22,409 bases of DNA from a virus (lineage: Duplodnaviria > Heunggongvirae > Uroviricota > Caudoviricetes). Position numbers and translations under genes: made by a program. The stretch is from the IMG/VR virus record IMGVR_UViG_2534681674_000017; one strand, written 5' to 3'. The notes under the pieces are model-generated. The model worked only from the letters and a program-made list of their open reading frames with translations. It ran no database searches and was not told the origin of the DNA. Below, piece by piece: positions 1,308-8,500 of the stretch (positions are counted from its first letter, which is position 1; the number at the start of each line of letters is the position of its first letter).

Positions 1308-2694
1308 TTAAAAATCAGCCTGACTCGGGAGCATTTTTTGCCAGATGGCTGAAACGTATTTCGCCTGGTAACGTGCATCGTTCAGAGCGTTATGGCGTTC
1401 ACCTTCGAATGGAATAGTCGTTCTTGCGTCGAAATCCATCACCAGTCCCAGAGCAACCATCGTTCTTACATCGCGATCATTGGTGTAACGACATGGGCAG
1501 GGGATCCCCTGCCGTTCATATGAACGGCGTAAAATCACGTTGTCGAAAGTTGCACCGTTACCCCAGACCTGAACAAAAAATTCACCGGAGTTTTCGTCGA
1601 TAAATTCCCGTAATTGCAGCAGTGCATCATCTAACGGGATTTCATCGGTAAGAATGGCGGATTGCGCTTCGCGTGACTGTTTCAGCCACCACTTAATGGT
1701 GTCCCGATCAATGACTCCGCCAGCAGTTTCCAGATCGATAGTTTTGCTGAATTCTGGCCCCATCTCTCCGGTTTGCGGATCGAAAAATATTGCACCTATT
1801 GAGATAATCGGGGCATCAGGATTTTTTCCCATTGTTTCAAGGTCAATCATCAGATGGTGCCACAACCTGCTGGTGGATGTAATTTCACGATGACCGTTCA
1901 CCTTAATTAAGGGATTTGCTGTCTCGCCACTTTCATTATCTGTGGTGTGGTAGTGATCGCCGCCACTGCCTTCCATTTCCTCCTGAGCTTCAGCCTGATT
2001 TTCTTCATCGAATGTTTCCTGGCAGGTTGCGTCGCCCATCACCGCGCCACAATCAGGGCAGTTGCCGCCACCACTCTGACCGCAGGCGGTACAGACTTTT
2101 TCCTCTTCCTGTTGCGCTACTGGTTCGGATTGTTTCGTTTCTGGCTCGTCTTGTAACGCATTTGGGCTGTTTTGTTCCGCTTTTTGGTCGTTCTGTTCCG
2201 TTTCTGACTGGTTCTGGTTCACAGAATCGCAGGTTTCAATCCCCTTCACCCATTTCGGATCATTCGGATCGCTAATCCCTTCAACAAATTCACCACGTGA
2301 TGCAGCAAGCAATTTATCGGCGTCAGGCTGGCTGATATTGGCTGCCTGCATAATTTTGTTTACTTCGTCAGCGGTAACTTTTACCGGCTCCGGTTGTACG
2401 GAATCTTCAGCGGTATCCACATTTTGCGGTAAGTCCGTGTATGTTCCGTTTTTGCGGGCAAGATATTCTTCTTTCGTGATTTCAGCAGCCCCGGCAGCCA
2501 GCGCCTTGTCCAGACCAGAAAGTTTGTTTGCGCGACCGTATTTTTCGCCATCCTTGTCGGTGAAGAGGAAGTAGAACGGCCCCTCACGCTCTACAGATGG
2601 TTCGACTTCCACTTTGCATTCGGTTTTTTCGTTGTCCGGAATTGCCGTTTCCACTGCATCAGTTTCTGGTACTGGCGACGAGAGAGTATCAGTT
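1308..2694 (-). pseudogene. C-terminal portion of a prophage exonuclease gene (DEDDh 3'-5' exonuclease domain) separated from its N-terminal portion by IS629
   Basis: ORF 1308..2771 has its first 25 codons inside the IS terminus; native coding sequence begins at 2694. C-terminal region carries Exo I (LMIDLETMG) and Exo III (HNALNDARY) DEDDh motifs. In silico removal of the IS plus one GTT copy joins it in frame to 4004..5055. Confidence 0.75.
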
Positions 2695-2736
2695 TGAACC
2701 GCCCCGGGTTTCCTGGAGAGTATTTTATCTGTGAAC

Positions 2737-3717
2737 TCAGGCTGCCAGATCATTATTTCCGATGGAAGCATAATAAGCTTTTTCTGCTTCTGCCGGAGGA
2801 ATATGGCCCAGCCTTTCCAGCAATCGTCGATTGTTATACCAGTCCACCCACGTTAGTGTGGCCAGTTCCACTTCTGTCCGGTTTTTCCAGCTATTACGGT
2901 GTATTACCTCCGCTTTGTAAAGACCATTGATGCTCTCAGCCATCGCGTTGTCATACGAGTCGCCAGTACTCCCTGTTGATGCCAGTAATCCGGCTTCCTT
3001 AAGCCGCTGCGTGTAGGCCAGCGATACATACTGAGAACCTTTATCACTGTGATGGATTGTGCCGGACGGCCGACGGGCCCACAACGCCTGCTCCAGTGCA
3101 TCCAGCACGAATGTCGTTTCCATAGACGATGAGACTCGCCACCCCACGATACATCCGGCAAACACATCAATGATGAACGCCACATAGACGAAGCCCTGCC
3201 ATGTGCTGACGTAAGTAAAATCAGCCACCCACAGCTGGTCAGGACGTTCTGCCACGAACTGACGGTTTACGCGGTCGCCTGCGGAAACGGCTTTCCGGCT
3301 GACGGTAGTACGGACCTTTTTACCCCGGAGAACACCGGCAAGTCCCATAACCGCCATGAGGCGCGCCACTGTACATCTGGCCACCCTGATACCTTCGCGT
3401 AACAACTGGCGCCAGACTTTACGCACACCGTACACCTGATGATTTTCATCGTATACGCGCTGTATCTCTCTCTTCAGCCAGTCATCGTGCTGCGCACGGG
3501 CACTGCGTTTATCCGGATGATGTCGCTGTTGCTGACAATGGTAATACGTTGACGGGGCAATATGCAGTTCGCTGCATACCGGTCCGACCCCGTACTGCTC
3601 ACGCAGCTTATCCAGCAGCGGCATTATTTTTCCAGAGGCGGTCGAACTCCGCCTTCGCAAAATAAGCGGAAGCCTGGCGAAGGATATCGTTACTGCGGCG
3701 CAGTTCACGATTTTCAC
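2737..3717 (-). CDS. IS629-like transposase OrfB (DDE integrase-type catalytic domain); expected to be made as an OrfAB fusion by -1 frameshifting
   Basis: ORF overlapping the 3' end of orfA in a different frame; contains the conserved IS3-family core (...[26 protein letters not shown]...[10 protein letters not shown]...[18 protein letters not shown]...). Confidence 0.85.
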
Positions 3718-3949
3718 GTTCCAGCTCTTTCAGACGCTGACGTTCAGCGGTGGTGAGTCCACCATCACCACTCCCGGTATCCCGCTCATGCTGACGAACC
3801 CACACACGCAGAGTCTCTGGTGTACAGCCAATCTTTGGGGCAATGGAACAAATTGCCGCCCATTGTGAGTCATATTCGCCCTGACTTTCCAGAACCATAC
3901 GAATCGCCCGCTGACGGACTTCGGGGGAAAAACGAGTATTTTTAGTCAT
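3608..3949 (-). CDS. IS629-like transposase OrfA (HTH, leucine-zipper region)
   Basis: ATG at 3949; 113-aa [62 protein letters not shown]... with heptad-like ...[21 protein letters not shown].... Confidence 0.85.
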
Positions 3950-4003
3950 CCTGTTTACCTCTTTCTCAGGGAGTTTAGTCTCCAGGATTTCCGGGGCGGT
4001 TCA

Positions 4004-5055
4004 GTTGCGCTCTGATTTCTTCCTTCATCTTCAAACACGCCCTTTGTAGTCAGGTATTCAGTAATGTATTTGTTCAGTGCCACAGGGTCTTTGTGAATGT
4101 CGATCGGACGTTCACGGACAAGGCCAAAAATAGTCTGGCGGCTGTAGCGAAGCGCATCAGGTTGTTTGCGCATTGATGCGGAGATGCGCTTCCAGTCTTC
4201 GCGATCTCTGGCGATAACTTCATTTTTAGCCCAGCGAAGGATGCTGCCGTCAATGTTTCCGGCATCCGCATCACCAGGCCAGAGATAGTAGGCCAGCTCC
4301 CTGTCCAGGGTTTTCCATGTCTGCTTGTATTCGCGATGAATGGCGGCAGTTACAGGAGGGATTTTTTCTGCTGGGTTTTCAGTGTGCTGTCGGTTGGCTT
4401 TGGCGCGGGCAAGATCAACAACAGACGTGTATTTTCCAGTCTCTTTGCGCTCTGCGTCCTGCCGTTTTTTCCAGTTACGTAATTCAGCCTGAATTTCGGG
4501 CCATTTGGTACCCGGCTTACATTTGTGTTTAACCCATCCGATAGCGAACAGTTTGCGTTCCGGATACATAGCGTTAATTTCAGGCGTTTTCATCAGTGCT
4601 TCAACGATATGCCCGTCAAAGGTAGCCACGTCTTCTTGCAGTAATTCCTGCGCGTCAATCGCCATATCAACGGTGATGTTTTCACATGTACCGAACTTAA
4701 CCAGGACCGCGTTCTGTACTTCAAGGGACAGCTTGTCAAAATTGACGTTAATAGGATCGGATTCTGGTTCGACCGGAATAAAGGAAGCGGATTCCTCATC
4801 CCAGCGGTTTTCCTGCATATATTCGGTATCCCAGGAGTCGATAGCAGGGCGGGGCATGCCGGGTTTATCTTCGCAGACAAGAAATTTATAAGCGCAGTCC
4901 TGAGCAGCAGGATATTGCTCCAGGAATTGCCAGGTAAATTTGGCACGGGCGCGGCGTTCATCACCGGCTTCAATGGCAGTGGCTACAGCAACTGCGCCCT
5001 CTTCTTTTATTGCCTGTTCGTCCGGAATGGCGGCGCAAATAAAGACTTTACTCAT
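4004..5055 (-). pseudogene. N-terminal portion of the IS629-interrupted prophage exonuclease gene
   Basis: ORF 3955..5055 starts at ATG 5055 (GAGG about 10 nt upstream) and reads 350 native codons before entering the IS at 4003; the last 16 codons are IS-derived. Frame is continuous with 2694..1308 once the IS and one TSD copy are removed. Confidence 0.7.
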
Positions 5056-5695: not shown

Positions 5696-5754
5696 AAAAA
5701 AGGGCGGCAGAGCAGTCACGGAGTAAAACTGATACCGCCAAATGTCACCAGAAT
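5696..5754 (-). ncRNA. dicF: DicF-like small regulatory RNA with intrinsic terminator
   Basis: Reverse complement of 5702..5753 reads TTCTGGTGACATTTGGCGGTATCAGTTTTACTCCGTGACTGCTCTGCCGCCC, matching the E. coli DicF sequence as I recall it at all but about two positions, followed on the minus strand by a U-tract (plus-strand A-run 5695-5701). Sits about 170 nt upstream of the dicB homolog as in Qin. Confidence 0.7.
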
Positions 5755-6228: not shown

Positions 6229-6675
6229 ATGGACCGGGATGATATTCTTGACAGGGTTTTATATGGTTATTTTCTTGAACAACTATTCTCTGTAGCGACT
6301 GGTCGTCTCGATAAACTTCTCTCAGTGGTGAGTATTATCCTCGGTTCATCTGTCATTGGTGGATTTATTCCTGAAGTTTCTGGAGTTCTCATTGTTGTGA
6401 TAGCAACCGTTCAAACGATTTACGGATTCGGACAAAAGTCAGGTAACGCAATGAGAAAATCCGCAGAATATCTGCAGCTTTATGATGATGCAGAAAAATA
6501 TTCCGATTCGGAATTGAAAATGCAGTTAAAGCTCCTGGAAAAAACAGATGATAATATTTGGTCGTCGCTTAAAGATATCGCAATCTTAAAAACCCAGATC
6601 AAAATAGGAATCTCCGTAGAACAACAAGAGAAACTGTCTGCAAAATCCAAATTGATGCGATTCCTTTGTGGTTAG
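6229..6675 (+). CDS. Putative superinfection-exclusion membrane protein (SieB-like architecture)
   Basis: 148-aa ORF with SD-like AGGTGA upstream; two predicted hydrophobic helices (LLSVVSIILGSSVIGGFIPEVSGVLIVVIATV) then a charged C-terminal region. Position between the kil-type gene and the immunity region matches sieB in Rac/lambda. Architecture-based call only. Confidence 0.45.
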   Translation: MDRDDILDRVLYGYFLEQLFSVATGRLDKLLSVVSIILGSSVIGGFIPEVSGVLIVVIATVQTIYGFGQKSGNAMRKSAEYLQLYDDAEKYSDSELKMQLKLLEKTDDNIWSSLKDIAILKTQIKIGISVEQQEKLSAKSKLMRFLCG

Positions 6676-6790
6676 GAATACCCAGATTGTTAAAGAGCAT
6701 GCCGGATGCTTACCCGTGTCCGGCGAACGTATTCCACTTCGCCTGTGGAGAACTCTTTAATTACTAACCTTCATCAGTCAGAGTTTCTTG

Positions 6791-6925
6791 CTAACCAGCG
6801 ACGCGCGCCAGCTTCCGTTTTAAACGTTTTGCTTCTGGTAACGTCATCGCGGTGAACGTGCCGTCCAGGTTGGGGAATACTCCGCATACCAGAGATTCGT
6901 TGTTGCCAAGATTGAGCATATCCAT
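6791..6925 (-). CDS. Small hypothetical protein (44 aa)
   Basis: ATG at 6925 preceded by GAGG 5 nt upstream; MDMLNLGNNESLVCGVFPNLDGTFTAMTLPEAKRLKRKLARVAG; stop TAG at 6791-6793. Not in the ORF track (below its size cutoff). Comparable in size and position to the small ydaF/ydaG genes of Rac, but not recognised by sequence. Confidence 0.3.
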   Translation of the reverse strand: MDMLNLGNNESLVCGVFPNLDGTFTAMTLPEAKRLKRKLARVAG

Positions 6926-7150: not shown

Positions 7151-7178
7151 TGGCAAGAATAACCCCTCTTGAGAGGGG
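7151..7178 (-). terminator. Putative intrinsic terminator after the parE-like gene
   Basis: Hairpin CCCCTC-TTGA-GAGGGG (7163-7178) followed on the minus strand by a U-rich tract (plus 7151-7162 TGGCAAGAATAA), 10 nt beyond the stop of the 7189..7476 ORF. Confidence 0.45.
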
Positions 7179-7188
7179 CTTAGGGGGA

Positions 7189-7476
7189 TTAAGGTGTTAC
7201 AGGGAACTGTCGGCGGGCGTGAACTACGTTAACAATTTCAATGCCTGAAATTGTCACGCGGTACAGAATGATGTAATTGGGGTGAGCTACAATTTCACGC
7301 AAACCAGGCACTCTGTCGCTTGGCGGGTATAAATACGGATGTTCAGATAATGGCAGGACGCAAGTCCTTAAGCGTTTCCACAAACGTTCTGCCGCATCTA
7401 TGTCAAAACGTGCAATATAGCTGGTTATATTATCTAGGTCGGCATCTGCGCTTTCGAGCCATAAAACCGGTAACAT
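7189..7476 (-). CDS. parE2: ParE/RelE-superfamily toxin (ParE2-like)
   Basis: 95-aa ORF with a ParE/RelE-type C-terminal region (...LREIVAHPNYIILYRVTISGIEIVNVVHARRQ); its start abuts the stop of the upstream 63-aa antitoxin ORF (7477). I cannot distinguish paralog 1 from 2. Confidence 0.7.
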   Translation of the reverse strand: MLPVLWLESADADLDNITSYIARFDIDAAERLWKRLRTCVLPLSEHPYLYPPSDRVPGLREIVAHPNYIILYRVTISGIEIVNVVHARRQFPVTP

Positions 7477-7668
7477 TTACTGTTTGCTCCGTTCCTTGCG
7501 CATGTTAGCAAAGCGTTCAGCCATTCTGCGTTCAACTTCGTCATGGGGAATGGCTGGACGTGGATCAGCAAGGCTTGCGGCCACTTTTGCACGCAGCCAT
7601 TCGTTATAACTATTTTCTTGCTCGACGGTTTCAAATTCAGAAACCATTGGTGAAAGGGCCGTGTTCAT
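7477..7668 (-). CDS. paaA2: Antitoxin PaaA2-like (63 aa)
   Basis: 63-aa ORF MNTALSPMVSEFETVEQENSYNEWLRAKVAASLADPRPAIPHDEVERRMAERFANMRKERSKQ immediately upstream of and abutting the ParE-like toxin gene; size and sequence match my recollection of PaaA2 from the E. coli O157:H7 paaR2-paaA2-parE2 module. Confidence 0.65.
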   Translation of the reverse strand: MNTALSPMVSEFETVEQENSYNEWLRAKVAASLADPRPAIPHDEVERRMAERFANMRKERSKQ

Positions 7669-8098
7669 GGTGAACCTCGTCTTGTAAGTGCTGGTAATCC
7701 TGCCTAGGAACTTTTTGTTGTGCTGCTAGCCACTTTGCAACTATACGATCCATTGTCTCTTTTTTCTCTTTCATATCTTTAAGCATTTGCTGTTGCTCTT
7801 CCTCTGGAAATGCCTCAAATGTTTGAAGTAGTTCCTTTTGCGTAGGGGTTATTTTTAATATATCCTGTGCCCTGTCCTTATTTTCTTCATTTAATGGTAA
7901 GAAAAACCAATACTGAGGAAATCCAGTCACATCAGATAGTTTATCTAGGTTGGCTGCTGTAGGGCTTGAGATGCCACAAGCCCACCTTTGGACGGATTGT
8001 TGAGCAATACCAATTCTGCGCGCAAGTTCTGCTTGGCTCCAGCCTTTTGCCAATAGAAGCATCTTAATTCTAAGAGCACTAATTTCGAGTACGCCCAT
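7637..8098 (-). CDS. paaR2: HTH (XRE-family) transcriptional regulator, PaaR2-like third component of the TA operon
   Basis: 153-aa ORF with N-terminal XRE-type helix-turn-helix (LRIKMLLLAKGWSQAELARRIGIAQQSVQRWA) and a C-terminal segment (TPTQKELLQTFEAFPEEEQQQMLKDMKEKKETMDRIVAKWLAAQQ) paralogous to the C-terminus of the adjacent repressor; 3' end overlaps the antitoxin start. Confidence 0.6.
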   Translation of the reverse strand: MGVLEISALRIKMLLLAKGWSQAELARRIGIAQQSVQRWACGISSPTAANLDKLSDVTGFPQYWFFLPLNEENKDRAQDILKITPTQKELLQTFEAFPEEEQQQMLKDMKEKKETMDRIVAKWLAAQQKVPRQDYQHLQDEVHHEHGPFTNGF

Positions 8099-8128
8099 CT
8101 GATATCTCTTGTTTTAGTAAGTATCCCG

Positions 8129-8500
8129 TCAGGCTCGGCGACCCTGCCGCGCCAACCAACGTGCAACAAGATCTTCCATTGCCTCTTTTTTGTTTCTTAG
8201 CTCTTTTATGATTTCCTGCTGCTCAGCGTCAGGAAAAGCACTAAATATTTGCAACAATTCCAATTGGTTAGGCGTTAATGCCATAGTTCTTGATGACGGA
8301 GATTCTGTTGTATCTTCAGGTTCCATATCAAGATACCCCCCAGGCATCCCATATGTTTGCTCAATACGTCTAGCTGCCTTTTCGCCAAACGTAGCTTTAC
8401 CGCTCATTAACTGAGATAAGTAACTTTTCTCTTTAGGCGGCAAAGTCCTGTCTTTGAACCACTCTTTGAGGCGTAAACGCCGAATCTCTTTTGTTTCCAT
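8129..8500 (-). CDS. Prophage cI-like repressor (HTH; no S24 peptidase domain)
   Basis: 123-aa ORF divergent from the cro-like gene at 8603; N-terminal phage-repressor-type HTH (LKEWFKDRTLPPKEKSYLSQLMSGKATFGEKAARRIEQTYGMPGGYL) and C-terminal segment TPNQLELLQIFSAFPDAEQQEIIKELRNKKEAMEDLVARWLARQ. Confidence 0.6.
   Translation of the reverse strand: METKEIRRLRLKEWFKDRTLPPKEKSYLSQLMSGKATFGEKAARRIEQTYGMPGGYLDMEPEDTTESPSSRTMALTPNQLELLQIFSAFPDAEQQEIIKELRNKKEAMEDLVARWLARQGRRA

Follow-up and report, generated by a model that had tools for sequence, protein, structure and literature searches.

A rare four-gene form of the paaR2-paaA2-parE2 locus with a predicted second DicA-family repressor between the regulator and antitoxin genes

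The viral DNA described here (IMG/VR record IMGVR_UViG_2534681674_000017, Caudoviricetes; 22,409 nucleotides (nt), referred to in full as the window) contains a CP-933P-type lambdoid immunity region that carries the toxin-antitoxin (TA) module paaR2-paaA2-parE2 in a rare four-gene form, in which an extra repressor gene of another specificity type is wedged between paaR2 and paaA2. Four open reading frames (ORFs) on the minus strand, at 8129–8500, 7637–8098, 7477–7668 and 7189–7476, encode 123, 153, 63 and 95 amino acids (aa), respectively. The 153-aa ORF and the start of the 63-aa ORF overlap by 32 nt, the antitoxin stop codon abuts the toxin start codon, and a terminator-like structure (7163–7176, minus strand), consisting of a G+C-rich hairpin and then a T-rich tract just past the toxin stop, closes the operon. 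The hairpin 3' of the toxin gene is kept, with varying sequence, in the other lineages that have two repressors in tandem. A first-pass annotation of the window had given the same gene order and hairpin, and had matched the module to PaaR2-PaaA2-ParE2 of Escherichia coli O157:H7. The family, the identities of PaaA2 and ParE2 and the location in a lambdoid immunity region all stand, but the labels were one gene off: PaaR2 is the upstream gene that had been called a cI-like repressor. The extra gene may encode a heterologous immunity repressor that was captured and works in trans on phages or co-resident prophages of the PaaR1/A19 type, a reading that is tentatively preferred here with a likelihood a little short of even.

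The gene at 8129–8500 is assigned, on its sequence and setting, as the PaaR2 orthologue and itself the CI analogue of the prophage, because of its identity to O157:H7 PaaR2 and to Protein Data Bank (PDB) entry 7nkv, its MQKKE start, its divergence from ydaS and its O157-like operators. Over its whole length the protein shares 74% identity with O157:H7 PaaR2, and its residues 1–63 are ~90% identical to the PaaR2 N-terminal domain (PDB 7nkv/8c3k, entry title 'Phage repressor protein CI'). The 7nkv chain starts with MQKKE, as does the experimentally sequenced PaaR2 N-terminus (PMC8630535). A PaaR-PaaA-ParE system is defined as having exactly three genes, headed by a regulator divergent from ydaS-ydaT and directly followed by the antitoxin. 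In the window, this heading position belongs to 8129–8500, whereas the 153-aa ORF lies between the regulator and antitoxin genes. The gene order in O157:H7 TW14359 is parE2, paaA2, a gene for a 123-aa protein and the divergent ydaS-ydaT, and a gap of just 20 nt separates the 123-aa gene from paaA2; PaaR2 directly precedes PaaA2 there, and the 153-aa protein of the window is therefore the product of an additional gene. The PaaR2 orthologue appears to be a divergent member of the DicA family: it matches phrog_5736 (E=1e-29), its C-terminal half matches the NCBIfam DicA model, and BLASTP aligns it with K-12 DicA (E=1e-9). Like the DicA/Gifsy-type repressors, it occupies the CI position opposite a divergent cro-like gene and has operators of its own. 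RefSeq currently annotates the gene as 'hypothetical protein', and relabelling it as PaaR2 corrects a naming that would otherwise propagate for the locus.

The extra gene (7637–8098, minus strand) is predicted to encode a PaaR1-type repressor of the DicA family. Its 153-aa product contains a canonical HTH_3 helix-turn-helix (HTH) domain (Pfam, E=7e-12) and aligns through residues 19–130 with positions 18–132 of the 135 in NCBIfam DicA model NF007257 (E=1.4e-15), a model that both window regulators match below its curated cutoff. A BLASTP alignment with K-12 DicA shows 31% identity across 113 residues (E=2e-15). Both regulators fall in phrog_5736, and the 153-aa protein is only 32% identical to PaaR2. 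The repressor core (residues 1–130; 7709–8098) is followed by a 23-aa tail (7640–7708) and the stop codon (7637–7639). An AlphaFold model (mean predicted local distance difference test, pLDDT, 77) places a five-helix HTH domain at residues 3–66, followed by helices at 71–80 and 85–95 and a long helix at 99–128; the tail (pLDDT <50) is predicted to be disordered, and its sequence differs between lineages. The nearest two-domain structural match to this model is SinR. Matches from PDB sequence and Foldseek searches cover the HTH only; for the C-terminal domain they yielded neither a solved structure nor a fold relative, and PADLOC gave generic HTH matches only.

The length of 153 aa is a side-effect of an indel. 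Relative to a 131-aa allele (SCU-171, 06-00048), a 1-nt indel has removed the stop codon, and reading continues in another frame 32 nt into paaA2. Translation of the tail in the 153-aa allele passes over the Shine-Dalgarno sequence (GAGG) and start codon of paaA2 (7640–7668), and the 131-aa allele ends 35 nt upstream of the paaA2 start; the indel could alter translational coupling, or occlusion, of the antitoxin.

Both window regulators resemble a known class of short lambdoid repressors. DicA (Qin), RacR (Rac) and the Gifsy proteins GfoR and GtgR are non-cleavable and are inactivated by antirepressors, not by RecA-stimulated cleavage (PMC3121763, PMC10448788), and Gifsy repressors were among the matches obtained. 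The window proteins share with this class cores of ~120–135 aa, an N-terminal HTH, a conserved DicA/Gifsy-type C-terminal helical domain (ELLxxFxAxPxxxQ) and the lack of an S24 domain, and the flanking P_L operon is of the dicBF type; they differ from DicA itself in being only ~30% identical to it. Peptidase_S24 is absent from both in Pfam searches, and both are too short for such a domain. Neither protein shows the S24/Ala-Gly cleavage features, and the likeness to lambda CI is functional and positional only. No antirepressor of the Rem, GfoA or GftA type turned up in the window, where no search aimed at antirepressors was made.

The remaining two genes are, by their identities, clearly a type-2 TA pair, as had been proposed at first pass. 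The 63-aa antitoxin (7477–7668, minus strand), which has no DNA-binding domain, matches Pfam PaaA2 (PF21217, E=1e-20) and is identical to PDB 3zbe at 58 of 62 aligned residues (E=1e-34). The 95-aa toxin (7189–7476, minus strand) matches Pfam ParE_toxin (PF05016, E=5e-16) and ParE2 in PDB 5cw7_B (E=2e-55, ~90% identity). A second three-gene locus of O157:H7 at ~1.27 Mb (the CP-933M position) encodes a 133-aa HTH_3 regulator, PaaA and ParE; its position, and its being the only other such locus in O157:H7, suggest that it is paaR1-paaA1-parE1. The window antitoxin is 94% identical to O157 PaaA2 versus 63% to this presumptive PaaA1, and the toxin is 90% identical to O157 ParE2 versus 67% to the presumptive ParE1. 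PaaA1 and PaaA2 do not cross-neutralise (PMC4803016). ParE toxicity, neutralisation by the cognate PaaA, post-segregational killing and repression by PaaR have been shown for the O157:H7 orthologues only (PMC8630535, PMC4803016). The window thus combines PaaR2-type and PaaR1-type repressors with a type-2 TA pair.

The system that the locus resembles is paaR2-paaA2-parE2 of CP-933P/Sp12 in O157:H7 (Hallez, 2010; Jurenas, 2021, PMC8630535). Besides the three orthologues already compared, the window encodes orthologues of YdaS (67% identity) and YdaT (82%), and in both cases the leftward operon is divergent from ydaS-ydaT. YdaS (8603–8884, plus strand; Pfam YdaS_toxin, E=1e-9) is the Cro analogue. 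YdaT (8888–9313, plus strand; Pfam YdaT_toxin) is the CII analogue, with a match to the CII-like activator family phrog_163 (E=7e-44) and 82–89% identity to O157 YdaT proteins. The O_R region (8501–8602) holds divergent P_RM and P_R promoters, found by promoter scan, and PaaR2-type operators. This intergenic region toward ydaS aligns with its O157 counterpart, including the P_RM -10 element and the first operator, TTTAGTAATC. The P_RM -10 element, GATAAT (8507–8512, minus strand), lies 6 nt before the paaR2 ATG, with the same spacing as in O157; paaR2 of CP-933P has a leaderless start (PMC8630535), and the start of the orthologue is probably leaderless as well. P_R (8540–8569, plus strand) and a P_L-like promoter (7133–7104, minus strand) share the hexamers TTGACT/TAAACT, with a P_L spacing of 18, and the CP-933P promoters P_R933P and P_L933P have been described alike (PMC8630535). 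The O_L region contains a 30-nt inverted match to O_R, and GTTTAG/GTTTAT half-sites occur in both, as in CP-933P. The identical P_R/P_L hexamers and an exact O_M are also common to the two prophages. The O_M motif, the YdaT operator TTGATT-N6-AATCAA, lies at the ydaS/ydaT junction (8881–8898, plus strand; 0.07 matches expected by chance), and its CP-933P counterpart sits at P_RE, an alternative transcription start under YdaT control from which the paaR2 operon is read (PMC9986795). The differences are that CP-933P has three genes where the window has four, with the 153-aa DicA/PaaR1-type repressor between paaR2 and paaA2, that the linker and C-terminal domain of the window PaaR2 have diverged, and that the P_R spacer and the downstream operator region are not the same. 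The coupling of TA expression to immunity-region transcription, suggested at first pass, is already published for CP-933P (PMC8630535).

The extra repressor has its closest counterparts in modules of the PaaR1 type, where such a protein is the sole regulator. In E. coli A19, it belongs to a three-gene HTH-paaA-parE operon divergent from ydaS/ydaT-like genes. The extra protein shares with these regulators the HTH_3 domain, the family C-terminal domain and a core of ~132 aa, and is 52% identical to the regulator of the CP-933M-position locus and 67% identical to that of A19. In those modules, however, the regulator is the only repressor, has a cro-like partner and phased ACA-N9-TGT operators of its own, and is accompanied by type-1 PaaA/ParE; the extra gene of the window has neither operators nor a cro partner, and type-2 PaaA/ParE genes lie downstream. 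It lacks an O_R of its own, which its relatives have. PaaR1-type loci carry phased 15-bp ACA-N9-TGT operator sites with A/T-rich centres at O_R as well as at O_L; five exact ones occur at the CP-933M-position locus, and the related sites of A19 read ACAC...GTTA/TGT. In the window, ACA-N9-TGT occurs at two isolated sites (6279 and 19637) versus 1.7 +/- 1.4 in shuffled sequences, none of them at a promoter, O_R or O_L, and the A19-type operator TAACTTTAAAAGTG has no match with up to three mismatches. One candidate at 8577–8593, GCACATTTAGAACAA, resembles the A19 operator by eye at ~10 of 15 positions; it was rejected as unconvincing, being single and non-palindromic and having no O_L counterpart. 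O_R and O_L are highly conserved, and of the PaaR2 type, in all tandem lineages. As a separate observation on the A19 module (locus L003, 2482–2952), its parE is annotated as frameshifted and its paaA start reads ATA, not ATG, so that this TA pair may be decaying.

These comparisons bear on the alternative proposed at first pass, according to which the 153-aa regulator is dedicated to PaaA2-ParE2 and the three form a self-contained TA cassette that lies below a CI-like repressor independent of it. In favour, the A19-type and CP-933M-position loci are indeed three-gene units of a PaaR1-type regulator, PaaA and ParE, and complete repression of paaR operons requires PaaR besides the PaaA-ParE complex (PMC4803016). 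However, the 30 nt between paaR2 and the extra gene in the window, and the 19 nt in strain 00-3076 (locus L005), leave no room for a promoter and operator; a promoter and terminator scan found no convincing internal promoter or terminator between 8500 and 7189, and the scans of the window found no PaaR1-type operators at its promoters. Moreover, PaaA and ParE are of type 2, whose natural partner is the upstream PaaR2, and native PaaR1-type regulators are CI analogues divergent from a cro-like gene, not TA-only regulators. A dedicated cassette is accordingly considered unlikely.

The two window regulators share a C-terminal domain, at 8132–8287 (minus strand; TMALTPNQLELLQIFSAFP...WLARQ) in the PaaR2 orthologue and at 7709–7861 (minus strand; ILKITPTQKELLQTFEAFP...WLAAQ) in the extra repressor, where it comprises predicted helix 85–95 and the long helix 99–128. 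The similarity, which had been noticed at first pass, is not low-complexity chance: BLASTP with composition adjustment aligns the two proteins with 27/75 identities (E=5e-17), and the C-terminal block is 49% identical over 52 columns, with the motif ELLQxFxAFPxxEQ...KKExM...W invariant. The same block has conserved counterparts in O157:H7 PaaR2, K-12 DicA and ~130-aa repressors across Enterobacteriaceae, and a profile search with this domain alone returned 21 representative clusters in which it is always at the C-terminus. The segment is read as the DicA-family C-terminal domain, because both regulators match the DicA model, DicA itself and phrog_5736. A recent duplication as the source of the shared domain, along the lines of the duplication suggested at first pass, is not supported. 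The domain of the extra repressor is identical to that of A19 at 35 of 46 positions (76%), compared with 49% for its PaaR2 neighbour; no DNA repeat was found between the two regulator genes, and their N-terminal domains do not align by BLASTP. On these three grounds a recent tandem duplication is rejected, and the two regulators would have been joined by recombination between immunity regions rather than by local duplication. Cross-talk between them is possible.

One form of such cross-talk would be a hetero-oligomer, in which the repressors co-assemble via their C-terminal domains and the extra protein tunes or retargets PaaR2 repression at the O_R and O_L of this prophage, or bridges them to foreign operators, much like SinR-SlrR of Bacillus. 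The 49% identity of the C-terminal domains, with their invariant motif, is consistent with this, as is the octamer formed by PaaR2 (PMC8630535); the presumed single transcript would let the proteins fold in proximity, and SinR is the structural match noted above. Metagenome contigs (L010, 4001–6360; L011; L012) encode ~244-aa repressors consisting of a lambda-CI-like HTH, an HTH_3 domain and a DicA-type C-terminal domain; their genes occupy the CI position opposite divergent ydaS/ydaT-like genes, and HipA_2 kinase-like and DUF3037 genes take the place of paaA-parE downstream. As single chains with two different HTH domains on one such C-terminal domain, they show that this domain is repeatedly paired with two DNA-binding domains. 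On the other side, the C-terminal domain of the extra repressor is nearer to the A19 type than to its neighbour and shows no sign of co-adaptation, and the constraint on its HTH (described below) would be needless in a pure modulator. Heteroimmune lambdoid repressors often share oligomerisation domains and are not known to mix functionally. Taken together, co-assembly seems rather unlikely. Its more specific version, in which mixed octamers of PaaR2 and the extra repressor with two DNA specificities couple the prophage's own O_R/O_L switch to heteroimmune PaaR1/A19-type operators, is unlikely to a somewhat greater degree; if true, the mixed octamers would be a split-gene counterpart of the 244-aa double-HTH repressors, which occupy the same genomic position, and the lambdoid equivalent of SinR-SlrR.

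The distribution of the extra gene and the selection acting on it bear on whether it has a function at all. DNA of paaA2-parE2 is present in 610 of 5,426 complete E. coli genomes, and the extra gene is present at full length in 17 of the 5,426. The 17 do not represent a single clone. At least four diverged lineages have the four-gene form, among them three at ~98%, 96% and 92% DNA identity, which differ in their downstream replication modules, and a metagenomic one with a 139-aa form. E. coli, Salmonella, Klebsiella and other Enterobacteriaceae commonly encode relatives of the extra protein of 132–135 aa and ~66–67% identity. Purifying selection acts on the extra gene, most strongly on its DNA-binding domain. 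In comparisons of the three main lineages, synonymous divergence (dS) is 0.20–0.27 and the ratio of nonsynonymous to synonymous divergence (dN/dS) is 0.12–0.16, falling to 0.07–0.09 in the HTH domain, and the nonsynonymous deficit is significant in every pairwise comparison (P 7e-7 to 6e-6). All tandem lineages share an unchanged recognition helix, AQQSVQRW, for which A19 has the nearly identical AQQSVQKW, and the ORF is intact in every lineage examined.

A neutral passenger, meaning a functionless leftover that recombination has preserved from a former immunity region and that is held in place by an essential repressor on one side and an addictive TA pair on the other, would agree with the rarity of the gene (17 of the 610 carriers), its lack of cis targets and its unstable 3' end, with forms of 131, 139 and 153 aa differing by indels; the TA module would also stabilise adjacent DNA (PMC8630535). 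However, a passenger would hardly have kept an intact ORF in all these lineages despite the synonymous divergence between them, nor a nonsynonymous deficit at P ~1e-6 that is strongest in the DNA-binding domain, with the recognition helix unchanged. This explanation is therefore regarded as improbable.

In a further comparison of the tandem lineages, the block spanning the paaR2 N-terminal domain, O_R and ydaS (8369–8900, compared with L004 and L005) is nearly identical between them (0–4 differences per 60 nt; dS of the paaR2 N-terminal domain 0.03–0.06), whereas divergence is far higher (dS 0.2–0.75) in the paaR2 C-terminal domain, the extra gene, the TA genes and ydaT. Because of this contrast between the block and its flanks, the pattern implies a recombination breakpoint in the paaR2 linker, and the immunity-specificity core would have been exchanged as a unit.

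The preferred reading, a captured immunity repressor acting in trans, would run as follows. The PaaR2 orthologue would be transcribed leftward from P_RM with the PaaA2-ParE2 module, divergent from ydaS/ydaT, and a complete second DicA-family repressor of the PaaR1/A19 subtype would have been captured between paaR2 and paaA2. Because the gene has no promoter or operators of its own, the extra repressor would be expressed with the lysogenic operon and made whenever that operon is on. It would silence early promoters of heteroimmune phages or co-resident prophages of the PaaR1/A19 type, and the lysogen would gain a second immunity specificity. A role in trans is considered the most likely because the DNA-binding domain is strongly selected, yet the available prophage region has no cognate operator array. 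An acquired second repressor that serves heterotypic superinfection immunity only has a precedent (PMC12700041), and DicA/Gifsy-class repressors are documented in cross-prophage regulation (PMC3121763). The precedent is the Bxb1-like repressor of mycobacteriophage Mcgavigan, where a prophage likewise has, in addition to its own lysogeny repressor, one of another immunity type that was gained by horizontal transfer and is not needed for lysogeny; it differs in belonging to an unrelated phage group and protein family, and its function was shown by deletion, whereas here we infer it.

Several points weigh against this reading. Both the DNA sites of the extra repressor and its role in heterotypic immunity are putative. 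The operator scan covers 22 kb of prophage only, and the operator types scanned for are extrapolated from proteins only 52–67% identical to the extra repressor. Co-transcription of the four genes from P_RM and the YdaT-dependent promoter is the simplest reading of the gene spacing and of the CP-933P data, and is presumed on that basis. The four-gene arrangement is rare (~3% of paaA2-parE2 carriers), so any benefit would not be general. Finally, relatives of the extra protein at 85% identity or more are all in tandem loci, and therefore no target phage whose immunity type closely matches has been identified.

Neither the TA module nor its coupling to immunity control is new, paaR2-paaA2-parE2 being a model for how a toxin-antitoxin pair is built into the lysis-lysogeny switch of a phage. 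In the literature searched, neither the tandem-repressor form with four genes nor two DicA-type repressors in one operon were reported, and the four-gene form appears to be undescribed. The four-gene variant offers a simple genetic handle on whether DicA-class repressors of different prophages cross-regulate or co-assemble via the C-terminal domain. It also raises the question of whether cryptic prophages gather foreign repressors, as cheap immunity genes, beside an addiction module that holds them in place.

The surrounding prophage contributes further observations. A DicF small RNA gene (5702–5753, minus strand; full-length match to Rfam RF00039 at 77 bits) follows downstream of the P_L-like promoter, which has PaaR2-type O_L half-sites GTTTAT/GTTTAG. 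Because of this DicF gene, the leftward early operon is classed by sequence as dicBF-type, as in Qin, here apparently under PaaR2-type rather than DicA operators. Just downstream of P_L, the ydfA-like DUF1391 gene (6774–6925, minus strand) consists of two short overlapping ORFs and is annotated as frameshifted in the close relative 2013C-4974. Between dicF and the ydfA-like gene, a 148-aa ORF (6229–6675, plus strand) runs opposite to the P_L operon; it has no Pfam or PADLOC match, is a 'hypothetical protein' in relatives and may be a moron. Further along, an IS3-family transposase gene (rve, HTH_21; 2737–3949, minus strand) appears to split a large exonuclease gene within 1308–5055 into a part with a Rv2179c-like 3'-5' exonuclease domain (1308–2771) and a second part (3955–5055); the exonuclease of 2013C-4974 is encoded by one gene of 2.4 kb. 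Positions 1–1020 hold a phage integrase gene, and the prophage is probably defective. On the other side of the immunity region, the replication module, which varies between tandem lineages, includes a 328-aa ORF with an acidic (EQ)n repeat and no Pfam match (10211–11197, plus strand), an IstB/DnaC-like ATPase (11204–11950, plus strand) and a DUF1627 protein (11972–12742, plus strand).

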